From Nitrosotalea sp. (GTDB lineage: Archaea > Thermoproteota > Nitrososphaeria > Nitrososphaerales > Nitrosopumilaceae): a DNA stretch of 18,875 nucleotides. The notes below the pieces were generated by a model. The model had not been told where the DNA came from, ran no database searches, and saw only the letters and a program-made list of their open reading frames with translations. The stretch covers positions 155,754 to 174,628 of the forward strand of contig JBOGRD010000002.1 of the NCBI GenBank assembly GCA_050749405.1, given 5' to 3'. A program made the translations under genes and the position numbers. Numbering within the stretch: the stretch's first letter is position 1; each line of letters opens with the position of its first letter. Shown here piece by piece: positions 4,709 through 15,742 of this stretch.

Positions 4709-5088
4709 ATGCAAGGATAATCGTTAGGGGAAAAGCAAAAGGCACTGTACTTTGCGCAGAAAATCCAGTGAATTTTCTTGGGGGTGTAGACAAGATAACG
4801 GGAAGGATACGGGACGAGAATCATGATCTCTTTGACAAATTTGTAGGAGGCAGGATTCTTGTATTTCCAAAAGGTATAGGCAGCAGTGTCGGTGCATATA
4901 CAATTTACTCACTAAAATACAACAAATGTGCACCACTTGCAATGATATGTCTCAAGGCAGATATTACAACAGCATCGGGTTGTGCAATCTCAAACATTCC
5001 ATTGGTTGTGGCAGAAAAGAAAGACTATGAATCCCTTAAAGATGGTCAAGAGGTCACAGTTGATGCAATAGAAGGCAAGATACTATAG
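4705..5088 (+). CDS. Aconitase X swivel-domain (DUF126) small subunit; probable phosphomevalonate dehydratase small subunit
   Basis: The 127-aa protein has the DUF126 pattern: GKAKGTVL...PVNFLGGVDKITGRIRDENHDL...GGRILVFPKGIGSSVGAYTIY...APLAMI. Its ATG overlaps the upstream stop (ATGA). Confidence 0.8.
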   Translation: MNARIIVRGKAKGTVLCAENPVNFLGGVDKITGRIRDENHDLFDKFVGGRILVFPKGIGSSVGAYTIYSLKYNKCAPLAMICLKADITTASGCAISNIPLVVAEKKDYESLKDGQEVTVDAIEGKIL

Positions 5089-5685
5089 TTCTATTCGTAC
5101 TACTGGGCCACTTGGTTCTGTTTCTTTGAATACAATCCCCTCGAATCGTAAAACTACCGTACCCTTTTGCTTCCAATAATCAAACGGAGCCCCTGCCTTC
5201 TCACATGTATGAGATAGAAATTCTTCTTCATTCCATCCGTATTCTACAGGGACCTGAGGAAGCAGAAGACCAGAACCAAACTCCCATTTTACAATTAGTC
5301 CGTCTCTACCAACCCTTATCTTAGATGGATACTCTGATGGATCTTGTACCTTTACCACTTCGGGAGGAGTCAAAATTGTTATCTCAAAAGTAATCTTGTC
5401 CAATTCATCATATTTTACAGGCAAAAATCGCGGATCTTCTGTTGCTGATGCTATAGATGCATCCAAAAGAGATTGGTATAGTTTTCTATCTGGTGTTGGA
5501 AATCCTATACAACCTCTGAGATTTTCTTCTTTGTTTAGAGTAACAAACACTCCAGAGTTGAAGGAAAATCTAGATTTGATTTCACTAGAAAGTGCTGTCT
5601 GCTTTCCGGTTTGGAGATATTCCATGACAACTGATCTTGCTGTCCTGACAAGTAACTCTCCATCTTGATCAGATATTACACTCAT
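5083..5685 (-). CDS. AMMECR1 domain protein
   Basis: AMMECR1-family motifs are present (GVFVTLNK...LRGCIGFP, DPRF.PV, LLPQV) and the ~200 aa length is typical of archaeal members. The ORF-track start at 5778 is a TTG that would overlap the upstream gene by ~97 nt. The ATG at 5685-5683 forms an ATGA overlap with the upstream stop and gives the family-typical N-terminus MSVISDQDGELLVRTAR. Confidence 0.85.
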   Translation of the reverse strand: MSVISDQDGELLVRTARSVVMEYLQTGKQTALSSEIKSRFSFNSGVFVTLNKEENLRGCIGFPTPDRKLYQSLLDASIASATEDPRFLPVKYDELDKITFEITILTPPEVVKVQDPSEYPSKIRVGRDGLIVKWEFGSGLLLPQVPVEYGWNEEEFLSHTCEKAGAPFDYWKQKGTVVLRFEGIVFKETEPSGPVVRIEL

Positions 5686-6173
5686 TTCAATCTCTGGTTT
5701 AGTTTTTCTACAAACTCTTGAATCTTTATCAAGTGAGTTCCTTCCCAGTAAATTTTTTTGCAACCCTTGCAAATCCAAAATTTTTCCTGTCTTTCATAAA
5801 TTCCGAGTGGAACCTTCTCCATGATTCTTATTTTATCAATAGCCTCGATTTTTCCATTACAATTGACACATCTTGAAGAGTTGGTGTCAATTACAAAATT
5901 TGAAAGACCGATCTTTTTTGCAATCTGGATTAGCTGCTCAATCTCATCATTTCCTCTAATGAGGACTGTCGTAATGCCGCCTATCTTTTCAGCACTTTTG
6001 GAAAGATTTTCGTCTTTTGTAACTATGACACGCCTTTGATTCTCTGCAAATTTGATCAATTCTGAATCCTCAATTGAAGACTCGTACTTGGAATCATAGC
6101 CAAGAATACGCAATTTTCTTGCCAAGTTCCCAAGCATTGCATCTACAACAAAACTAGGCTTATGTGCACTCAA
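5682..6173 (-). CDS. Mut7-C RNase domain protein (PIN-like nuclease fused to a C-terminal zinc ribbon; PF01927/DUF82-like)
   Basis: The N-terminal FVVDAMLGNLARKLRILGYD is the hallmark Mut7-C opening. The C-terminal CVNC...CKGC is the zinc ribbon. The start codon is TTG (complement of 6171-6173) and overlaps the NFACT stop as TTGA. Confidence 0.8.
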   Translation of the reverse strand: MSAHKPSFVVDAMLGNLARKLRILGYDSKYESSIEDSELIKFAENQRRVIVTKDENLSKSAEKIGGITTVLIRGNDEIEQLIQIAKKIGLSNFVIDTNSSRCVNCNGKIEAIDKIRIMEKVPLGIYERQEKFWICKGCKKIYWEGTHLIKIQEFVEKLNQRLK

Positions 6174-8098
6174 TATCCTTGACCAATACCTGACTCTACT
6201 ATGTGACCATCTCCAGCAGGAAGTGCACGTATAAAATCATCAATATTAAATGCCTTAACAACATCTTGGTTTTCTGCAAGTTTTAGAAATTCCAGTCTTA
6301 CCTTTTTTGCAAGATCTGTCATATCAGTTCCAGATGGTTCTATAATTACATAAAACAAGCATCTCATCTTCACTGCTGGTAGTGGACCAGACATGATTGT
6401 ATAGCTGTCATCTTTTTGATACAACCCTATGGCCAGCTGCAAGTTGGAAACTTGAACAAAGTTTCTAGTACCCTCTATCGGGAATGCTCCCTTTGCAAGA
6501 AATTGACCAGTAGGAGCTCCCATCTTGATCTGATCTGGCTTTACCCAGTAGGCATTTAATCCGTACAATCCTTCCCTCCACGCTCTACTAAAGCAGACCG
6601 TAGCTTGCGCTACTTCTGTTATGCTTGATATCATGTCATCTTTACTATCCTTTAGGATAAAAAATGGTGATCCCACTATCTCTGCGTGGAAGACTCTGTC
6701 ATCTTTACCTAGGTGTTTTCTAATTACCGAAGAATTGGAAGATGCATCTCGTCCTCCAATTGCCAAAAGTCCATCTGAAGTAAAAAACCACCTGTATCTC
6801 TCATACCATTCTTTCTTTTTCTGTATTGCAAAAACAATGGAATTTTGTGCGATAGTGGCCTGCTTTCTTAATGCCTCCAAATTCTTTTCAGTCTTGATTT
6901 TTTCTGACCCTATTGTCTCAATTGCTTTTAATTGTCGTTTTGATTCGTTAAACAAGACAGAAGCTATGGCCTGAATCGATGATTGTGGATTAATCTTTAC
7001 TTTATCTTCTTCGATATTTATCATTAGTATGCCACTTTCTCTTATCAGAGAAGAATGGTATTCTTGCAATAGTGGCGGAACTCTTGAATCCTCGATGGAT
7101 GTAACTCCAATTGATGCCAAACCAAAGAGAGCCTTGGCAACTTTGGATATTGATTCAGCTCTTTGCTTAACCAATGAGATTGCCTTGTTTTGCTCCTCAA
7201 GTTTATGCTCAACCTCCGTTATCTTTTGGCTTACGGTATCAGTCTGCGTCGTCTTTCCCTGCTCTAGAAGATTTTCAGAAAACAATGAATCCAGCCCTTC
7301 CATAAAACTAGACACTTGGCTGACATTTTTTTGTGAAACATCTCCAAGCGGTATGGGATACACGTCTGCTCCCTTGTCATCACGAACAATGCATGGCTCG
7401 TGTTTTCCATTGACAACTTTTTCAATCAGCTCCCTTGTCGCCTGATATATCTTGGCAACCTCTTCGCTAGACAATGTGTTTCCCAATCTCTGGCCGTCTA
7501 CATCAGATCTCTTCATTATCTCCTCTGCATATTTGGAGGGCAATCCCAGAGTTCTGCCAATCCACCTTACTGCCACAGTAGATGCAGATCTTATCTCCTC
7601 CAGATCTTTTTGTGTAACTTTAAAAATATCTGAGCCGCTTGATGGAGGAGGTACATACGTTAGGCCAACCCCTAACTTTCTATGCCTTACATCAATTGAA
7701 TGAAGAAGCGACAGGATCTTCATCTCTTTATTGCACAAAAGTATGTTGCCATCACCAAAAAACTCCCCAATCAGAATAAATTCTTGGTTAAAACCGCTAA
7801 ATGTAACTTGGACTATTCTTTCACTACCAATTTGCTCAACGTTAGTAATTCTTGCGCGAAGAAGATCATTTCTGAGTCTCTTTACCAGTCTGTTCTCCTC
7901 CATCTGACTTATCTTTACATTGGTAATCCAAAATCCAAATGTGGAAAACATGAGCAAAAGATCTGGCTTTTCGGGATGATGCAACTTGAAGAGAAGACTA
8001 TTGCGGGTTATACCATAGATATTGCTGACATAATAGTCCTTTGTCTTACTGGATATTTCATTTACCAGATAACATAATTCAATTCCTGCAAGCGTCAT
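6170..8098 (-). CDS. NFACT-family protein (archaeal Rqc2/NEMF/RqcH homologue; FbpA N-terminal + DUF814)
   Basis: The 642-aa protein has an NFACT-N region (GSERIVQVTF...IGEFFGDGNILL), a central coiled-coil segment, and an NFACT-R/DUF814 region (WYERYRWFFTSDGLLAIGGRDASSNSSVIRKHL...VFHAEIVGSPFFILK). ATG start. Confidence 0.88.
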   Translation of the reverse strand: MTLAGIELCYLVNEISSKTKDYYVSNIYGITRNSLLFKLHHPEKPDLLLMFSTFGFWITNVKISQMEENRLVKRLRNDLLRARITNVEQIGSERIVQVTFSGFNQEFILIGEFFGDGNILLCNKEMKILSLLHSIDVRHRKLGVGLTYVPPPSSGSDIFKVTQKDLEEIRSASTVAVRWIGRTLGLPSKYAEEIMKRSDVDGQRLGNTLSSEEVAKIYQATRELIEKVVNGKHEPCIVRDDKGADVYPIPLGDVSQKNVSQVSSFMEGLDSLFSENLLEQGKTTQTDTVSQKITEVEHKLEEQNKAISLVKQRAESISKVAKALFGLASIGVTSIEDSRVPPLLQEYHSSLIRESGILMINIEEDKVKINPQSSIQAIASVLFNESKRQLKAIETIGSEKIKTEKNLEALRKQATIAQNSIVFAIQKKKEWYERYRWFFTSDGLLAIGGRDASSNSSVIRKHLGKDDRVFHAEIVGSPFFILKDSKDDMISSITEVAQATVCFSRAWREGLYGLNAYWVKPDQIKMGAPTGQFLAKGAFPIEGTRNFVQVSNLQLAIGLYQKDDSYTIMSGPLPAVKMRCLFYVIIEPSGTDMTDLAKKVRLEFLKLAENQDVVKAFNIDDFIRALPAGDGHIVESGIGQGY

Positions 8099-8257
8099 AA
8101 TGAATCGTTATCACTCCAAAATTATACTCTTGCTATTGTAGGCTTCCAAACGTTGTGAACCATTTACCCTTACGGAGGGTAGGATTGCAAGAGTTTGAAG
8201 AAAAAAGACAATTCTACACTTGGACGCGATATCTTTGGTGTTAAATTCCAGTAATTC

Positions 8258-8743
8258 ATGCCTTACTCTCATAACGGTAAATATTTACACAGGCTTCACC
8301 GAGTGAGTTTGAAAATTTACTTGGTAAGACATCCAAAAGGCAAAGACAGCGATAAGAAATCAGGACCAAGTGATAACCCTGCAAAGGACACACCTCCTGA
8401 GGAACCACGTGCTATGGAGACTGACGAATCTAGGATAAAGAGCGGCCTTGACAAGGTGTTTTGGTTGCGCGTTGGTCTGGGCATACTAGCTGGAGCTATT
8501 TCTGCCATAATTGGAAAACCCATGGATCTGGATTCAAGAATATTTATAGGATTTGGAACCATGATCGCACTGTTCATAGTTTCATATGGAATTGCCAAGT
8601 CCCTTCGAGTACCACTGTTGCCATCAGACAAGAGAAAACTTATCATGACTGGTATTGGGAGCTACTTCCTGATGTTCATATTTAGTTGGATTCTGGTAAA
8701 TACCATAATCAATCCAGATGTTGGCATTGGAATAGTGCATTAG
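8258..8743 (+). CDS. Hypothetical integral membrane protein (about 3 TM helices, K/P/D-rich N-terminal tail)
   Basis: Hydrophobic segments: VFWLRVGLGILAGAISAIIG, IFIGFGTMIALFIVSYGIA, LIMTGIGSYFLMFIFSWILVNTII. The start is uncertain. ATG 8258 is the longest option. A TATA-like AAATATTTA at ~8279-8287 lies inside that extension and would favour TTG 8321 or ATG 8414. Confidence 0.55.
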   Translation: MPYSHNGKYLHRLHRVSLKIYLVRHPKGKDSDKKSGPSDNPAKDTPPEEPRAMETDESRIKSGLDKVFWLRVGLGILAGAISAIIGKPMDLDSRIFIGFGTMIALFIVSYGIAKSLRVPLLPSDKRKLIMTGIGSYFLMFIFSWILVNTIINPDVGIGIVH

Positions 8744-8783
8744 ACAAGCGCTAAATATCCAAAACGCCTTTTCACTTAATTAT

Positions 8784-9374
8784 ATGTGGAAATATAGAAC
8801 CCCTGGCATTCCAGATGAACTATTTGAAAGAGTAGAAGAGGTACCAATTACAAAAGAAGAAGTACGCACAGTACAAATTAGTAAAGGCAGGCTTGACCAG
8901 GGCCAAACTGTATATGACATTGGATGTGGAAGCGGGTCTGTATCAATAGAAGCTGCCCATCAAATAGGTGTAACAGGAAAAGTTTTTGCAATTGATTTTG
9001 ATCCAAAAGCAGTAGAACTTAGCAAGAAAAACCTATCAAAATTTGGGGTATCAAATGTTACAGTCATTTTAGGAAATGCGCTAGAAAAAATTTCAGAACT
9101 TCCTGTAGCTGATGTCATATTTATTGGGGGAACAGGAGGCGATACATCTGAGATACTAAAACTCTGTGAGGGAAAGCTCAAGCAAGGAGGGAGAATAGTG
9201 ATAGGAACCATTTTGATTGAGACCCTTTATTCTGTACTTTCAGCTATGGAAAAACTCCAATTTTCATCCGTTGATATCACTCAAGTTACAATATCCAAGA
9301 GCCGCAAGACATCTACTGGTACCATGATGCTAGCTAGAAATCCTGTCACCATAATCTCTGCAACAAAAATCTAG
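8784..9374 (+). CDS. cbiT: Cobalt-precorrin-6B C15-methyltransferase (decarboxylating)
   Basis: The N-terminal signature PGIPDELFERVEEVPITKEEVR is present, with the SAM-binding motif VYDIGCGSGSVSIE. At 196 aa the length is typical. TAAATAT lies ~30 bp upstream of the ATG. Confidence 0.88.
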   Translation: MWKYRTPGIPDELFERVEEVPITKEEVRTVQISKGRLDQGQTVYDIGCGSGSVSIEAAHQIGVTGKVFAIDFDPKAVELSKKNLSKFGVSNVTVILGNALEKISELPVADVIFIGGTGGDTSEILKLCEGKLKQGGRIVIGTILIETLYSVLSAMEKLQFSSVDITQVTISKSRKTSTGTMMLARNPVTIISATKI

Positions 9375-9487
9375 CCAATATCTTTCTATCATTGTCTAAT
9401 CAACGCCAAAATATGGATCTGAATACAAATTGCCTTCAAACAAATAATCAACAGAGCTTGCTATTCATAATCGACTTACACTATTTA

Positions 9488-9880
9488 TCAGACCGAAGGA
9501 TCTGATTTTAAAAATTCCTTCAGTTTGGAAACCGAGCCACCAAGATTCATAGTCTTTATTGCAAGGTTTGCCTGATCTTTTATCAATTCAGGACTTGATA
9601 TGACATCATCCAAAGAAAGCATACTCAGCTGCATATTCAGAGTTGTCAAGAATGGATCCCTCATTGCATTTCTGATCATGTTTAACAAATCATGGTCAAC
9701 TGGCGGCTCACTTGCTACTAGATTGTAGACATGCTGCATTTGATGGTAGGTATTGATTATTGAGCTTAATTCGTTTACCAAGTCCTTGGCACTGCCTCCG
9801 CTAGATTCGATACGCATTATATTTTTGTAAGATTCTAGAATCTTATCTAGAAGTGCCTTGAATTGTTCCATAGAGCTCAT
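9488..9880 (-). CDS. Hypothetical all-helical protein (130 aa), family not recognised
   Basis: A clean ATG-initiated ORF with no competing ORF on either strand. The composition looks helix-forming (MEQFKALLDKILESYKNIMRIE...). It lies antisense between cbiT and cbiL. Confidence 0.5.
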   Translation of the reverse strand: MSSMEQFKALLDKILESYKNIMRIESSGGSAKDLVNELSSIINTYHQMQHVYNLVASEPPVDHDLLNMIRNAMRDPFLTTLNMQLSMLSLDDVISSPELIKDQANLAIKTMNLGGSVSKLKEFLKSDPSV

Positions 9881-10115
9881 TACGTATGTGTTATCATTAT
9901 AAAAATCAGGGTCATATTAAGATCGGCAATAAAAGCAATCAAGTGGTTCCAATCTGGAAATATCAACAATAAAGCGTGTCTCAAAAATCATTCTTTTTGT
10001 ATTGCATGACTAGCTCCAAAAACAAAAAATGTTACACTGATTATTTTGCATATGCTATGAAACATATTTCCAAAAAATCTAGCTTTTAATTAGGTACCAC
10101 CACGACTTTCATTAA

Positions 10116-10838
10116 ATGGCTGAATTGACATGCGTTGGTTGTGGTCCAGGCGACCCGGATCTTCTTACCGTAAAGGCAGTAAAGGCCATTCAAAGTGCTG
10201 ACGTGATCATGTGCCCCACTTCAAGGGAAGGCAAAGAAAGCATTGCATACTCTATAATATCATCATTAGTTGATAATTCCAAAAAACCTGACATCATGAA
10301 CTTGGTATTTCCAATGGTAAAGGACAGGGAGACTTTGGAGAACACGTGGAAAACCAATGCACGCATAATAGCTGACAAAGTAAAAGATGGGAAAAACGTT
10401 GTATATCTTACAGTGGGAGATCCGTCACTATACAGTACATGGATTTACCTGCAACGTGAGCTCAAGTCAAAATATCCTGAGATCAAGATAACAGTGGTTC
10501 CTGGAATAGTATCCATGTTTGCTTTTGCATCCAAGGTGGGAATCAGCATAGCAGAAGGGGATGAAACGGTTGCCGTGATACCTGCGTGCTATGACCTTTC
10601 TAGAGTAAAAGAGACTGCAAAGAACTGTGATACCATGATATTTCTAAAAGATGGTAGGTATTTTGATCAGGTCATTGCGCTGCTAAGAGAGGCCGGCTTT
10701 CCTGACAGCTCACTTTTTGCCATAGCTCAAGACGTAGGAACAAATGAAGAAATTGTAAAGAAATTAACACTTGGCGAGGTCACAAAGGACACATTGACCA
10801 GCAAATATTTTTCAATCATGGTGGTAAAACGTGCATAA
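10116..10838 (+). CDS. cbiL: Cobalt-factor II / precorrin-2 C20-methyltransferase
   Basis: A tetrapyrrole methylase fold (VGCGPGDPDLLTVKAVKAIQSADVI, LTVGDPSLYST, VPGIVS). The FPM...W segment (LVFPMVKDRETLENTW) is characteristic of CbiL/CobI. The TATA-like CTTTTAATTAGG ~28 bp upstream of the ATG suggests a leaderless or short-leader mRNA. Confidence 0.82.
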   Translation: MAELTCVGCGPGDPDLLTVKAVKAIQSADVIMCPTSREGKESIAYSIISSLVDNSKKPDIMNLVFPMVKDRETLENTWKTNARIIADKVKDGKNVVYLTVGDPSLYSTWIYLQRELKSKYPEIKITVVPGIVSMFAFASKVGISIAEGDETVAVIPACYDLSRVKETAKNCDTMIFLKDGRYFDQVIALLREAGFPDSSLFAIAQDVGTNEEIVKKLTLGEVTKDTLTSKYFSIMVVKRA

Positions 10839-11598
10839 AGTATACTTTGTTGGCTGTGGTCCGGGTGATCCCGAACTGATTACAGTCAAGGCCAAAAAAT
10901 TAATCCAAAAAGCTGATGTGGTCGTATACTCTGGCTCGTTGATCCCGCCTGCGATAGTCAAGCTCTGTAAAAGAGCCGAACTGCATGATGCTGCAAAACT
11001 AGTAAGAGAAGACATTTTCAAGATTCTACGGAATAACGCATTGAAAGGAAAACTAGTTGTTAGATTACATGATGGCGATCCCTCAATCTATGGAGCGATA
11101 AGGGAGCAGACTGACAACCTCAAAAAGGAGGGAATAGGATTTGAGGTAGTTCCAGGAATTACTTCCTTCTTGGCATCTGCTGCAGCGTTAGGCTGTGAGC
11201 TTACACTCCCCGGTGTTACGCAAACCATAATTGTAACAAGGGCAGAATCACGAACCAAAGTTCCAACAAGAGAGAAAATTTCAGAGCTTGCCAAGCACAA
11301 AGCTACCATGATATTCTATCTGAGTGTTCATCTCATATCAGATATTGTTAAGGAAGCCATCAAGGGAGGATATCCCAAGTCAACTCCTGTAGCAGCTGTA
11401 TATCGAGCAAGCTGGAGCGATGAAAAAATAATAAGAGGGACACTTGAAAACATTGCAAAAAAAATCAGAGATGAAAAAATTACAAAAACTGCAATCATAA
11501 TTATCGGTGAAATTGTAAACCCAAAGCACTATGAATATTCTAGACTATATGACAAAACTTTCAGCCATGGATACCGAAAGGCAAAAGTAATTTCATAG
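10831..11598 (+). CDS. cbiF: Cobalt-precorrin-4 C11-methyltransferase
   Basis: VYFVGCGPGDPELITVKA...ADVVVYSGSLIPP and VVRLHDGDPSIYGAIREQ match CbiF/CobM. The GTG start overlaps the cbiL 3' end by 8 nt. Confidence 0.88.
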   Translation: MHKVYFVGCGPGDPELITVKAKKLIQKADVVVYSGSLIPPAIVKLCKRAELHDAAKLVREDIFKILRNNALKGKLVVRLHDGDPSIYGAIREQTDNLKKEGIGFEVVPGITSFLASAAALGCELTLPGVTQTIIVTRAESRTKVPTREKISELAKHKATMIFYLSVHLISDIVKEAIKGGYPKSTPVAAVYRASWSDEKIIRGTLENIAKKIRDEKITKTAIIIIGEIVNPKHYEYSRLYDKTFSHGYRKAKVIS

Positions 11599-11608
11599 CG
11601 TGAGTAAT

Positions 11609-11626
11609 GTAACTGTTACCTTTTTT
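11609..11626 (+). terminator. Candidate cbiF terminator: GTAAC-T-GTTAC palindrome followed by T6
   Basis: GTAACTGTTAC occupies 11609-11619, followed by C and TTTTTT at 11621-11626, 11 nt after the cbiF stop. Archaeal termination typically uses oligo-T tracts. Confidence 0.4.
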
Positions 11627-11908
11627 CTATTTGCTTGTCATATAATTCAAATAAAAAATTGGGAGAGGGTTTTTTGGTTTCACCCAAATCCCCTTTCTTA
11701 TTTTGCGTGTAAGAATGGATCCTGTCTTGGTCATGTGTGAGCCGAGACACCACTCAACTCGTACCCGTACACTATATGAAGTTCAAGCATTAGATAGTAC
11801 ATTTCATTTTCATACCTTTTATGAAACATTGAATAAAACTTACCAGATTAGAGATGAATCAACATTTCACCGTCAGAGATGCTTTTCAAATTTGGGATTT
11901 TAACAATA

Positions 11909-12106
11909 TTAGGTATATTCAATTATTCTGCCTGTTTGATCATCTATTTTTACATACCTGGTTTCCTTGCTTGTAATTCCGATATTTACTTTGACTATCA
12001 AAAATTTATCTTTGCGAACAACTCCTTCTGGGAAAACATTGGAGCGATGCTGTTCAAAAAATCTATAAGCTATATTCATTGCTGCGGCTTCATCTACTCT
12101 ACTCAA
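11909..12106 (-). CDS. Small PepSY-like protein (65 aa), paralogue of 13022-13246
   Basis: The C-terminus RYVKIDDQTGRIIEYT aligns with RVKVDAETGRILGYT of the other small ORF. The N-terminal VDEAAAMNIAYRFFEQ aligns with VDSAQVKEMVRSFLAQ. The start is TTG (complement of 12104-12106), and because the alignment extends upstream of the first internal ATG it supports that TTG. Confidence 0.55.
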   Translation of the reverse strand: MSRVDEAAAMNIAYRFFEQHRSNVFPEGVVRKDKFLIVKVNIGITSKETRYVKIDDQTGRIIEYT

Positions 12107-12337
12107 TTTGATGTGGCATCTCCTCTATACGCACGTGTACCTACCATGCAAGTGCTACGTGAACATGATACAAAAGTATCAGTTCCAAGCGTCTCGATGG
12201 AATTGGGGGGAAAAAAGTTGTATTGCCATCACATAATCCCAAATAAAGTCACTTTGATTGCTAAAGTGGTTTGTTTTAACTTGAATTGAATTTGAAAATA
12301 GTTGACAGATATCAAAACTATTGGCGCGAATTTGACA

Positions 12338-12817
12338 TTAGAGCCTGTCAATTATATATAGTGGGATTGAGGTCTTTGTTCCCACTATTTCCACAATCTC
12401 AGTCCATATCACATCTTTAATCCCACTAATACCCTTTAGTAACTCTAACATTCTTAATATTTCGCCATTGTCTTTTAGGATGGTTTCCACCCTCAAGTCT
12501 ATAGTGTGCTGTCCTATGCTCTTTCCAACATATATTATCTCATCACGTTTTAAAAGCATCTTACCAATAGCATCAGTCCTACCGCTTTCTGTCGCAATGA
12601 GAAAATCAACCTTGTGCCAGCCAAACTTTGCCAAGTCAAGAGTATACACCACTTTCAAGAATTCTTTTTCTAGTCGCTTGCGCCTTCTCTGGACGGTCGT
12701 AGCAGGCAGCCCAAGTCTCTTTGCTAGCGTCTTGGAAGAAAGTTTGCCATTAGGAGCAAGAAGTATTTTCAAGATCTTTCTGTCTATTTGTGTTAATGTA
12801 ATATTCTTGCTACTCAT
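12338..12817 (-). CDS. Lrp/AsnC-family transcriptional regulator (N-terminal wHTH + C-terminal RAM-like domain)
   Basis: LTQIDRKILKILLAPNGKLSSKTLAKRLGLPATTVQRRRKRLEKE is a classic Lrp/AsnC HTH. It is followed by a ~80-aa alpha/beta effector domain. ATG start. Confidence 0.85.
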   Translation of the reverse strand: MSSKNITLTQIDRKILKILLAPNGKLSSKTLAKRLGLPATTVQRRRKRLEKEFLKVVYTLDLAKFGWHKVDFLIATESGRTDAIGKMLLKRDEIIYVGKSIGQHTIDLRVETILKDNGEILRMLELLKGISGIKDVIWTEIVEIVGTKTSIPLYIIDRL

Positions 12818-12986
12818 GTTTGCATCTAACTATTAATCCATCATGTAAAACTGGGATTATATCAGGAAATGTCCCAATATGCATACAATTATAATACAAT
12901 CCGCTAAATATATGGTTTTTTAATCCATTATTCTCTTATTAGTGGATAAAAATGAAATGATGTTCTGGATTGATCTGCCACAGGTT

Positions 12987-12999
12987 TTTTATATAAAAA
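12987..12999 (+). promoter_or_regulatory. Strong archaeal TATA box for the 13022 gene
   Basis: TTTTATATAAAAA is centred ~28 bp upstream of ATG 13022, a spacing consistent with a leaderless transcript. Confidence 0.45.
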
Positions 13000-13021
13000 T
13001 CACTAATAATATTTTACTGAA

Positions 13022-13246
13022 ATGGCTCCTACAATCGATGCTGTTGATTCTGCCCAAGTTAAAGAAATGGTAAGGAGTTTTTTGGCACAAGGTAATGTGG
13101 TTTATGATGTTAGAGTGCTCACGTTAGAAGACCATATTTGGACTGCTGAAGCAGAAGTTTCGTTATATGGTATAACTCGTATTAAAAGAGTAAAAGTGGA
13201 TGCAGAAACAGGCAGAATCTTGGGGTATACAAGCCTAAAATTATAA
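13022..13246 (+). CDS. Small PepSY-like protein (74 aa), paralogue of 11909-12106
   Basis: ATG start with a strong upstream TATA. The C-terminal VKVDAETGRILGYT resembles the PepSY-domain terminal strand motif (v.vDa.tG.i). It is a paralogue of the other small ORF flanking the Lrp gene. Confidence 0.6.
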   Translation: MAPTIDAVDSAQVKEMVRSFLAQGNVVYDVRVLTLEDHIWTAEAEVSLYGITRIKRVKVDAETGRILGYTSLKL

Positions 13247-13486
13247 AATCAACCATCAATAAGTTTCATTTACATCCGACGGTTTTTTACAGGTTAAAGA
13301 TCCGACGCAGATTATACAGAACCCAAAAGAGGATTCTGACGGCACGACTGTTTGATGGATTTTATGGCATACAATTACTAGATGAGAGTTTATTTGCAAG
13401 AAAAAAGTGTGGTTATACTGTTATTATCTAAGGAGAGGCGATCAGAAGAAGATCACGATCAACCGAAGAGGTAACACAACCTCATT

Positions 13487-14242
13487 TCATAACTGAAATA
13501 CTTTGTTCCTAATTCCCAATTTTTGCAGCTTTTCTTGAAAATCTTTGATATCTCCAGATGCAAAGATCTTTAATTTATGTCCACTTGATTTCTTATTCTT
13601 TAGTAGAATTGCAATCTTATCGGCTATGGCATCAGCAGGATCAAGGAACGTTACACTGGGAAAAGTTTTCTTTAGCATTGGTAGAAGAAATGGGAGATGT
13701 GTACTAGATAAGGTCACGACATCAACCTCCTCCTTCTGAATTTGTTGCAGAACATCTCTAATCTTTTTTTTGCAAAACTCTTTTTTAGAAATAAATTTTC
13801 CAGATTCTACAAGCTCCACAAGTGGTGATATGTTAATCTTAATCACTCTAATTCCTTTGGGAACTTGTTTTTTGATGTGGTTTTGTAATTTCTTACTTTC
13901 AACAACTGATTTGGTGGCAAGAATTGCTATTGAATTTGTAATTGTCTTCCCTGCAGCATCTTCTAATGGTGGATAAACCCATAAAATTTTTGATTGTTTT
14001 TTTAGGTTTAGCAAAAGCGAAGGCGTGTTTGAAGCAACCACTATCAAATCGGGCTCGAATTTTTCTTCCAATTTTCTAATGGTTGACTTGATAACCTTTC
14101 TTAATTCACTAATAGATTTTGTACCATATGGAAAATTGTCTTGATCAGCAAAATAGATAATTTCAGTTTTAATCTTTTTTTGAATTGGTTTTATTATGGA
14201 AAGGGAACCTAAACCAGAATCAAACACTGCTATCCTTGGCAC
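13487..14242 (-). CDS. Glutamate racemase-like (Asp/Glu racemase superfamily) protein lacking both catalytic cysteines
   Basis: MurI-type motifs are present: IAVFDSGLGSLS (for IGVFDSGVGGLT), YFADQDNFPYG, and VVASNTPS and LSSTHLPFL at the positions of ACNTAS and GCTHYP. GTG start (complement of 14240-14242). Confidence 0.8.
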   Translation of the reverse strand: MPRIAVFDSGLGSLSIIKPIQKKIKTEIIYFADQDNFPYGTKSISELRKVIKSTIRKLEEKFEPDLIVVASNTPSLLLNLKKQSKILWVYPPLEDAAGKTITNSIAILATKSVVESKKLQNHIKKQVPKGIRVIKINISPLVELVESGKFISKKEFCKKKIRDVLQQIQKEEVDVVTLSSTHLPFLLPMLKKTFPSVTFLDPADAIADKIAILLKNKKSSGHKLKIFASGDIKDFQEKLQKLGIRNKVFQL

Positions 14243-14346
14243 AATTTCAAACTAATTCTCACAGATTTATTTTGTGAGCTTAATTTAGCCTAAAGTTGAC
14301 GATAATATACACCGGCTATTAAGAACTAACTTTCAAACTAGCAGCC

Positions 14347-14988
14347 ATGACCGGCTTCGATAAGACCTGGACTCGTCCCGAGTCTGCAGGTTTAAGCGAA
14401 AAATTACGTGAAACTGTAAAACCACAGGGTGCACTCAAACCTAGAATTGAGGGCGCTGTGAACAAATTACAGGGTCAGATATCGAAGATGGATTCTATGC
14501 TGACAAAGCTGAGACAAAGAGATGAACAGCTTTTCAAGCGAATCGTAACCGCCATGCAACAGCACGATGCGAGCACAAGCAGAGTTCTGTCCAACGAGCT
14601 TGCCGAGATAAGAAAGGTCACAAAAATGCTAGGAAACGCCAGAATGGCACTAGAGCAAGTACAATTGCGTCTAACAACAATACACGACCTAGGAGACGCA
14701 ATGGTAGCAATAGCTCCTGCAATGTCTACAATGAAGGGACTCAAATCATCCCTTGGAAGATTTATGCCAGAGGCAGATTCCGAACTGAACTCTATGACCC
14801 AGACACTCAATGGACTAATGATGGACTCGCTGGCAGGAGGAGACTTTAACGTAGACTCTGACGTATCAAGCGAAGAGACAGACAAGATACTCCAAGAGGC
14901 ATCCGCAGTTGCAGAACAGCAAATCGGCGACAGATTCCCATCAGTTCCATCACCCTCCGGCGTATCGTCACAATCAACATACGAGTAG
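14347..14988 (+). CDS. cdvB: ESCRT-III / Snf7-family cell-division protein (CdvB paralogue)
   Basis: The 213-aa helical protein has the Snf7-like core (LEQVQLRLTTIHDLGDAMVAIAPAMSTMKGLKSSL...). It has an acidic C-terminal region and a proline-rich tail, DRFPSVPSPSG. Thaumarchaeota divide with Cdv proteins. ATAATATA lies ~40 bp upstream. Confidence 0.85.
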   Translation: MTGFDKTWTRPESAGLSEKLRETVKPQGALKPRIEGAVNKLQGQISKMDSMLTKLRQRDEQLFKRIVTAMQQHDASTSRVLSNELAEIRKVTKMLGNARMALEQVQLRLTTIHDLGDAMVAIAPAMSTMKGLKSSLGRFMPEADSELNSMTQTLNGLMMDSLAGGDFNVDSDVSSEETDKILQEASAVAEQQIGDRFPSVPSPSGVSSQSTYE

Positions 14989-15020
14989 GGGAAACTCGGA
15001 TGGGGAAATGGACGAGAACG

Positions 15021-15043
15021 TCTCTTTTTATATTGTAAAGAGA
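15021..15043. terminator. Candidate bidirectional terminator hairpin between convergent cdvB and the UDG gene
   Basis: TCTCTTT (15021-15027) pairs with AAAGAGA (15037-15043) around a 9-nt loop. A T5 run at 15025-15029 lies on the plus strand. Confidence 0.35.
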
Positions 15044-15079
15044 TCCTGATTCTCTTAACCAGCTATGATCTCATAAATT

Positions 15080-15742
15080 TCATTTATTGTCTAGAAACTT
15101 TCTTGCCTTTACAAATATCGCTGACCACTGTTTCCATGTCAGGCGTCCTGTCTGGGTATTTTGTCTACTTGGATGGTATGAGCATATTATTGTCAAATGC
15201 TGGTGTGTAAATGATTTGCCATGGGAAAAACCAACGCCCTTTATGTGCAACAATTTGCAACATGTATCAAAGGCTATCCTTCCAAGGCATACTATTACCC
15301 TGACTTCTTTTAGCAAAGAAAACTCGTTTATCAAATAGGGAAAACAGTTTTCAAACTCTTCTTTCGTGGGCTTGTTTTTTGGTGGCGCGCACCTGACCGA
15401 TGCGGTGATATATGCATCAACTAGTCTGAGCCCATCATCAGCCCTAAGACTTGTTGGCTGTGAAGCAAAACCATTCTCATAAAGTGCTTTGGCAACCCAG
15501 TCCCCTGAGCTGTCTCCAGTAAACATCCTTCCCGTCCTGTTTCCACCGTGAGCAGCCGGGGCAAGTCCTATGATAAATAACCGTGCGTGAAAATCTCCAA
15601 AACCGGTAAGAGGCCTTCCCCAATATTTTTCATTATTGAACCGCTTTACTTTCTCATCTGAGACTTTTCTAATATAGGATGCAAGTCTAGTACACTTTTT
15701 GCATTTTATTATATCTGAATTCAGGCTTTGAAGAGATTGCAT
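15080..15742 (-). CDS. Uracil-DNA glycosylase, family 5 (UDGb-type) with a 4Fe-4S cluster
   Basis: Motif A is GLAPAAHGGNRTGRMFTGD. GLAPA is the family-5 variant of the family-4 GEAPG. Fe-S cysteines are CKKC...C(118)-x14-C(133). The HPS motif lies near the C-terminus (SYHPSRQN). Confidence 0.85.
   Translation of the reverse strand: MQSLQSLNSDIIKCKKCTRLASYIRKVSDEKVKRFNNEKYWGRPLTGFGDFHARLFIIGLAPAAHGGNRTGRMFTGDSSGDWVAKALYENGFASQPTSLRADDGLRLVDAYITASVRCAPPKNKPTKEEFENCFPYLINEFSLLKEVRVIVCLGRIAFDTCCKLLHIKGVGFSHGKSFTHQHLTIICSYHPSRQNTQTGRLTWKQWSAIFVKARKFLDNK

Follow-up and report, generated by a model that had tools for sequence, protein, structure and literature searches.

A widespread, previously unrecognised sister subfamily of glutamate racemase with serines in place of both catalytic cysteines in ammonia-oxidising archaea and in bacteria

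Glutamate racemases of the MurI/RacE type (EC 5.1.1.3; TIGR00067; PDB 2GZM, 1ZUW, 2JFN) are two-domain, two-base enzymes in which the two catalytic cysteines stand in the motifs ACNT and GCTH. Arylmalonate decarboxylase (Gly/Cys) and maleate isomerase are members of the same superfamily (PF01177) that are not racemases, and on this scaffold an altered catalytic pair goes with an altered type of reaction. A comparable change is known from the proline-racemase-like trans-3-hydroxy-L-proline dehydratases (Cys/Thr), where the replacement of a thiol by a hydroxyl turned a cofactor-independent two-base racemase scaffold into a dehydratase; these enzymes serve as an analogy only, having an unrelated DapF-like fold and just one of the two bases replaced. 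Bacterial MurI also moonlights as a gyrase inhibitor, independently of its racemase activity. Here we describe a MurI-like gene of Nitrosotalea sp., a soil ammonia-oxidising archaeon (AOA), whose product has serines in the columns of both catalytic cysteines (Ser/Ser instead of Cys/Cys). The gene lies in an 18,875-nt stretch of DNA (GCA_050749405.1, contig JBOGRD010000002.1, positions 155,754-174,628 of the forward strand), called the window below.

Natural replacement of one catalytic cysteine has been described in the superfamily for the one-thiol racemases RacX (Ala/Cys) and E. coli EcL-DER/YgeA (Thr/Cys), which show altered specificity or directionality (PMC12838360). These enzymes keep one thiol, whereas the protein described here has none, and in EcL-DER the exchange of the second-site cysteine for serine (C197S) abolished racemase activity, as cited in PMC12838360. 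The archaeal protein itself figures in a study of 2025 (mSystems, PMC12363236), in which a 'glutamate racemase' was reported to be ubiquitous in AOA and confined to them, utilisation of D-glutamate was proposed, and the Nitrosopumilus maritimus protein modelled there (A9A551) was described as having the necessary catalytic residues. Among the literature found for the N. maritimus locus tag, Cys-to-Ser mutants of MurI and racemases of the AOA core genome, only that paper concerned this protein. No paper describing the Ser/Ser subfamily was found in the searchable literature, and no thiol-free racemase of the superfamily came up in the searches made.

The MurI-like protein belongs to the PF01177 superfamily (38.1 bits, cut-off 31), and a genome profile search found no other PF01177 gene in the Nitrosotalea genome. 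Its top NCBIfam match was the glutamate racemase equivalog TIGR00067, at 123.2 bits and thus below the cut-off of 146.65; the scores for NF002035 (94.7 bits, cut-off 328) and NF002034 (81.3 bits, cut-off 408) were likewise too low. A phmmer search of solved structures gave 23 matches, every one of them a glutamate racemase, the best being B. anthracis RacE2 (2gzm, E 2.6e-20), and a search of the ESM Atlas returned 'glutamate racemase' clusters only. Identity to the nearest solved structure, a canonical MurI, was only 26%. A model made with AlphaFold2 from 57 homologues had a mean predicted local distance difference test score (pLDDT) of 95.9, and all of its 40-plus top Foldseek matches were glutamate racemases, with template-modelling (TM) scores of 0.72-0.87, and of 0.82-0.87 for solved glutamate racemases, in agreement with a two-domain MurI fold. 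Aspartate racemase structures ranked below MurI (TM about 0.6) and TIGR00035, which covers the aspartate racemase branch, reached 23.9 bits against a cut-off of 93.1. The protein is therefore distant from EcL-DER/YgeA and RacX, which belong to that branch. Arylmalonate decarboxylase and maleate isomerase belong to a different branch from the Ser/Ser protein, with other pocket residues and at least one cysteine retained, and no sequence affinity of the Ser/Ser protein to them was found beyond the superfamily level.

In the phmmer alignments to 2gzm, 3uhf and 2jfn (E 2.6e-20 to 4.8e-16) Ser71 stands opposite the cysteine of ACNT and Ser180 opposite that of GCTH, and the blocks FDSG, PYG, NT, VESG and TH all align with those of the solved glutamate racemases. 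Neither of the two catalytic cysteines is thus present in the Nitrosotalea protein. AOA proteins conserve the residues that bind glutamate or assist catalysis in MurI (D8, S9, P38-Y39-G40, N72, T73, T110, E146, T181 and H182). Compared with MurI/RacE, the protein shares the two-domain fold, the length, the sequence blocks and the helper Asp, His and Glu, and differs in having Ser/Ser for Cys/Cys together with four further changes that separate Ser/Ser from Cys/Cys proteins: Gly to Ser at 13, Ala to Pro at 74, Gly to Ser at 179 and Phe or Tyr to Leu at 183. It also differs in scoring below the TIGR00067 cut-off, in falling in a separate clade, and in occurring in organisms that lack murein and Mur ligases and, in bacteria, beside a true MurI.

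The serines were nearly fixed among close relatives. In a set made up of the query and its 120 closest homologues (Nitrosotalea, Nitrosopumilaceae and Nitrososphaera metagenome-assembled genomes (MAGs); 60-100% identity), position 71 was Ser in 121/121 proteins and position 180 in 120/121. Within the genus the serine codons varied synonymously, TCA, TCT, TCC and TCG being used at 71 and AGT and AGC at 180, and pairwise ratios of nonsynonymous to synonymous substitution rates (dN/dS) had a median of 0.19 (range 0.10-0.36). These ratios and the synteny described below come from 30 loci of the same genus or close relatives, of which three are from unpublished genomes (L003 = G326, L007 = G231, L015 = G132); no claim rests solely on these three or on G364, which is counted in the survey below. 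The gene is under purifying selection, and because the serines are near-fixed in 121 proteins while the codons turn over synonymously at both sites, the Ser/Ser state is due neither to chance nor to sequencing error. One Nitrososphaeraceae genome (L033, G120) had a cysteine at 179, directly before Ser180 (LCSTH), as a natural variant.

We then surveyed 401 genomes of the class (G364 included) with the Nitrosotalea query. The gene was present in 281 of 315 genomes of four AOA families of the window's order (f1 196/223, f2 10/10, f3 71/78, f5 4/4), and the same query gave no match in 85 genomes from 16 further families of the class. Representatives examined from each of the four AOA families had Ser in both columns, the first motif reading ASNTPS, ASITPS or ASVTPS and the second LSSTHLP, LGSTHL or LCSTHLP. 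Similar results were obtained with 15 further Nitrosopumilaceae-type genomes, all of which had Ser before T-H; an ASNTP-type first motif was seen in 14 of them, the pattern scan having missed L149. No match to the Mur-ligase domain (PF08245, Mur_ligase_M) was obtained in the 99.94%-complete Nitrosotalea genome, and therefore no MurD- or CapB-type ligase using D-glutamate was found there.

These data bear out a preliminary description of the window made from the sequence alone. It had recognised the MurI homologue, which the PF01177 match, the structure alignments and the modelled fold all support, and had placed serines at both catalytic cysteine columns, on which the alignments to solved glutamate racemases and the confident model agree; the codons it gave, TCA for Ser71 and AGT for Ser180, are correct. 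It had argued from the two different codons against a sequencing error, as the homologues now confirm, and had asked whether the state is fixed or confined to a local degenerate copy: Ser/Ser occurs in every AOA family sampled and no Cys/Cys orthologue was seen. A classical MurI role, which it had considered unexpected, finds no support, no Mur-ligase-domain protein having been found in the genome. Beyond that description, we find that the Ser/Ser clade is old and widespread in bacteria, that its bacterial carriers keep a normal MurI, and that the 2025 paper treats the protein as a racemase.

A HMMER search of the full library gave 7322 relatives, of which the best 150 representatives were aligned. 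Both catalytic columns were covered by 116 of them, comprising 61 Ser/Ser and 55 Cys/Cys proteins and no mixed Cys/Ser pair; the remaining residue states were due to fragments or to one aberrant row (P0219). In an IQ-TREE phylogeny of 80 rows (LG+C20) a single branch separated 56 Ser/Ser from 24 Cys/Cys proteins, with a Shimodaira-Hasegawa-like approximate likelihood ratio test (SH-aLRT) value of 100 and a length of about 0.68, and a FastTree phylogeny of 131 rows, containing 56 Cys/Cys proteins, gave the same split. The Nitrosotalea protein fell on the Ser/Ser side of this branch of 100% support and not inside the canonical MurI clade. The Ser/Ser side held the AOA groups f1 (support 99) and f2 with f5 (100), with f3 near the base, a cluster of proteins from Brocadiaceae/Planctomycetes MAGs, and a well-supported bacterial branch (100) that was traced to Mammaliicoccus sciuri. 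On this sequence evidence the Ser/Ser proteins are a distinct and old sister subfamily of MurI. We define it by the motifs FD[SA]GxGS, ASN[TAV]PS and L[SGC]STHLP together with a position in the Ser/Ser clade, all of which apply to the Nitrosotalea protein. The base of the clade is a polytomy, from which no direction of transfer between the two domains can be read, and monophyly of the AOA proteins was not rejected (approximately unbiased test, p-AU 0.91).

Six positions, D8, S71, E146, S180, T181 and H182, were invariant across 57 archaeal and bacterial members with 28-87% identity. The bacterial Ser/Ser branch had exchanges at S9 (to A), T73 (to A or V) and T110 (to V), and retained both serines along with D8, E146, T181 and H182.

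A scan of species-representative genomes found 305 bacterial Ser/Ser loci, including Halomonadaceae, Brucella/Ochrobactrum, Mesorhizobium, Phyllobacterium, Bradyrhizobium, Cupriavidus, Undibacterium, Nocardia and others; the bacterial groups with Ser/Ser proteins comprise Halomonadaceae, Rhizobiales, Burkholderiales, Nocardia, Mammaliicoccus and Brocadiaceae. All five carriers tested (Mammaliicoccus, Chromohalobacter, Brucella, Nocardia and Undibacterium) had a Cys/Cys homologue in addition to the Ser/Ser gene. The Cys/Cys copy scored above the TIGR00067 cut-off in four of the five, the Nocardia copy reaching 111 bits, and the Ser/Ser copies scored 92-133 bits, below the cut-off in all five. 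Since the carriers also keep a Cys/Cys MurI, the Ser/Ser protein is not a replacement for MurI, which argues for a different job.

Within the clade, the cluster P0149, from MAGs of anammox Brocadiaceae/Planctomycetes, has AOA-type motifs (FDSGVGS, ASNTPS, LSSTHLPF) and branches near AOA at the base of the clade, a position that may reflect gene exchange among chemolithotrophs of the nitrogen cycle. The metagenomic Ser/Ser homologue P0153 has Trp in six conserved Gly columns (8 Trp and 1 Gly in 272 aa), the pattern expected if the gene of an organism reading UGA as Gly (code 25, Gracilibacteria/Absconditabacteria) is translated with UGA as Trp. The contig of locus L100 (JAHREI010000006.1, labelled Bacillus subtilis SK6B4) encodes a Ser/Ser protein that groups with those of Halomonadaceae and Brucellaceae, next to a neighbour cluster also present in Pseudochrobactrum, and is probably contamination or mislabelled.

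The N. maritimus protein of the 2025 study was located at L137:283-1038:- and identified by exact look-up as UniRef100_A9A551 / ABX11960.1. It reads VASNTPS and TLSSTHLP and is thus a Ser/Ser protein without both catalytic cysteines. Our survey therefore confirms the distribution given in PMC12363236 and does not confirm its statement on the catalytic residues of A9A551.

The positions of the gene, its active-site residues and the adjoining features are collected in Table 1.

Table 1. The MurI-like gene, its active-site positions and adjoining features in the Nitrosotalea window
Feature	Position	Strand	Remarks
MurI-fold gene, Ser/Ser subfamily	13487-14242	-	251 aa, GTG start, TGA stop
Asp8-Ser9 (FDSG block)	14216-14221	-	Asp8 invariant in Ser/Ser and Cys/Cys; Ser9 in AOA and MurI, mostly Ala in bacterial Ser/Ser branch
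Ser13	14204-14206	-	Subfamily-diagnostic; Gly in 24/24 Cys/Cys rows, Ser in 54/56 Ser/Ser rows
Pro38-Tyr39-Gly40 (PYG block)	14123-14131	-	Common to MurI
Ser71 codon TCA	14030-14032	-	Column of first catalytic Cys of MurI (ACNT to ASNT)
Asn72-Thr73-Pro74	14021-14029	-	N and T common to MurI; Pro74 subfamily-diagnostic (Ala in MurI)
Thr110	13913-13915	-	In AOA and MurI; Val in bacterial Ser/Ser branch
Glu146 (LVESG block)	13805-13807	-	Invariant in all groups
Ser179 (TCT)	13706-13708	-	Typical of the subfamily; MurI has Gly/Ala, two deep AOA families Gly, one Nitrososphaeraceae genome Cys
Ser180 codon AGT	13703-13705	-	Column of second catalytic Cys of MurI (GCTH to SSTH)
Thr181-His182 (TH of catalytic motif)	13697-13702	-	In all groups; 181 is Ser in one Cys/Cys row
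Leu183			Adjoins Thr181-His182; Phe/Tyr in MurI
Divergent intergenic region, 104 bp	14243-14346	.	Between MurI-like gene and CdvB-like gene
CdvB-like (Snf7, ESCRT-III) gene	14347-14988	+	Head-to-head with MurI-like gene in three AOA families

In the families f1, f2 and f5 the gene lies in a common syntenic block consisting of an NFACT operon, a methyltransferase gene and two tetrapyrrole methylase genes, followed by the CdvB-like, MurI-like and UDG genes. In the window the block spans 5083-15742 (compared with L129, L130 and L131: NFACT/Mut7-C/AMMECR1, orf8258, methyltransferase, two TP_methylases, CdvB-like, MurI-like, UDG), and in the three families local rearrangement is restricted to its last three genes. 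This shared block is consistent with the gene having been acquired once, early, and inherited vertically thereafter. The adjacency to the CdvB-like gene was considered as a functional link and down-weighted, being part of a larger inherited block and missing in Nitrososphaeraceae. The MurI-like gene and the tetrapyrrole methylase gene (window 10831-11598) adjoin tail to tail in about 28 genomes of the genus; in the Nitrosotalea window a segment of about 1.9 kb (11599-13486) separates the two. This segment carries an Lrp/AsnC regulator gene (12338-12817) between two small paralogous PepSY-like open reading frames (11909-12106 and 13022-13246) and resembles an insertion specific to the lineage. 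A hydantoinase/oxoprolinase A-type gene (about 705 aa; L127:9349-11481, L128:6404-8515, G156:C98:31947-34076) follows the Ser/Ser gene 60-110 nt downstream, in the same orientation, in three Nitrososphaeraceae genera. Three other genera have this gene at an unlinked position, in one it was not found, and the Nitrosotalea genome lacks it, so that this linkage is a possible, non-conserved lead toward a lactam or a 5-oxoproline-type substrate.

In bacteria no partner gene was common to 80 loci examined over 10 kb on each side. The most suggestive recurring neighbour was a co-directional LysE-type amino-acid exporter gene, found in two phyla (Mammaliicoccus, Salinicola, Kushneria). Others were limited to a lineage: a 4HBT thioesterase in Mammaliicoccus, an AraC-type regulator in Halomonadaceae and a class I/II aminotransferase in one Selenomonadaceae MAG. 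In Rhizobiales (L064, L075 and others; Phyllobacteriaceae, Brucellaceae) the Ser/Ser gene lies between a chvI-chvG-hprK-(EIIA)-NPr cluster and ahcY. The recurrent neighbours were rejected as a clue to the substrate, being lineage-limited and none of them universal.

The preliminary description had offered a non-racemase activity or a binding/regulatory pseudo-enzyme as explanations. Both are still live and are not separable by sequence. The view we put first, with confidence and doubt in about equal measure, is that the protein is a functional enzyme of the Ser/Ser sister subfamily that acts by oxygen-based chemistry on glutamate or a ligand closely resembling it and is not a racemase of the MurI type. 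With D8, S9, P38-Y39-G40, N72, T73, T110 and T181 kept in the pocket, the AOA protein would still bind glutamate or a ligand very similar to it. The helper residues of the two MurI bases are also kept, D8 at site 1 and H182 with E146 at site 2, and a Ser71-Asp8 pair and a Ser180-His182-Glu146 triad could thus provide oxygen-based acid/base or nucleophilic chemistry on the ligand. Candidate reactions would be proton exchange or epimerisation of a more acidic substrate, elimination, or hydrolysis at an alpha-carbonyl, and not efficient racemisation of glutamate. Several points weigh against such an enzyme. The Ser-His and Ser-Asp geometry assumed here is that of MurI, the AOA neighbourhood is inherited synteny that points to no substrate, and the bacterial loci offer no operon partner that would indicate one. 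The single Cys-to-Ser mutants of MurI made by Glavas and Tanner in 1999 reportedly keep a small residual activity, and given this activity and the slow growth of AOA the protein may be a slow racemase. Finally, the invariant Asp, His and Glu could serve ligand binding alone, which would fit a non-catalytic sensor. A protein of this kind, in which the MurI pocket binds glutamate or another small acid without racemising it and which would have a sensing or regulatory role or serve as a binding partner of another protein, is a serious alternative although we consider it unlikely. The exchange of Cys for Ser is nearly isosteric, abolishing thiol chemistry and preserving shape and hydrogen bonding; the glutamate-binding residues are retained in AOA, no metabolic operon context was seen at the loci examined, the gene is paired head-to-head with an ESCRT-III gene in three AOA families, and the moonlighting of MurI provides a precedent. 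However, D8, H182, E146 and both serines are invariant where positions 9, 73 and 110 have changed, which is more typical of a catalytic core, and the CdvB adjacency, lying inside the inherited block and missing in Nitrososphaeraceae, says little on function. We favour a catalytic role over pure binding because the catalytic constellation is strictly kept across archaea and bacteria despite the diverged pocket residues.

It is improbable that the protein is a physiologically relevant glutamate racemase by which AOA convert environmental D-glutamate to L-glutamate, the reading taken in PMC12363236. The fold and all glutamate-contacting residues besides the two bases are MurI-like, the gene is near-universal in AOA and not found in their non-AOA relatives, and the superfamily does include the one-thiol racemases RacX and EcL-DER (PMC12838360). 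Both thiol bases are nevertheless missing in every AOA protein examined, A9A551 included, the family scores below the equivalog cut-off, and the retention of canonical MurI by bacterial carriers implies that the two proteins are not interchangeable. Among the three live readings a useful glutamate racemase ranks last, because no thiol-free racemase of the superfamily appeared in the literature searched, EcL-DER C197S is inactive as cited in PMC12838360, and bacteria keep MurI. Robust use of D-glutamate by AOA through this protein is accordingly unlikely, and it is not a supplier of D-glutamate for a cell wall. The chance that the gene is a decaying copy or a sequencing or assembly artefact is negligible. 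The loss of the canonical catalytic residues is the sole point in its favour, and this reading is already refuted by the fixation of Ser/Ser, the distribution across genomes and the dN/dS of 0.19, the frame being intact, the motifs invariant across hundreds of genomes and the structure model confident.

If the Ser/Ser protein is an enzyme, as we favour, a bolder form of this reading can be put forward, although tentatively and with considerable doubt. The clade would constitute a new enzyme class on the MurI scaffold, with a Ser-His-Glu triad and a Ser-Asp dyad catalysing a reaction new to the superfamily, in which a glutamate derivative would, for example, be hydrolysed or epimerised or undergo elimination. 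AOA would have gained it in a single event at their origin and kept it because their ammonia-oxidising lifestyle requires it, and the homologues of anammox Brocadiaceae and many other bacteria would perform the same chemistry beside MurI.

AOA rank with the most abundant microbes of soils and oceans. They almost universally carry the Ser/Ser gene, which the survey did not detect in their non-ammonia-oxidising relatives. Since A9A551 lacks both catalytic cysteines, the ecological inference on D-glutamate drawn in the 2025 study needs a biochemical test. The label 'glutamate racemase' (K01776 and similar) that automatic pipelines assign is probably a misannotation throughout the Ser/Ser clade, a widespread sister family of MurI that had not been recognised before. 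For enzymology, it represents a natural and widespread thiol-free MurI lineage with a strictly conserved active-site shell that coexists with true MurI in bacteria, and thus a clean case for learning what a two-base racemase scaffold does when both bases are serines.
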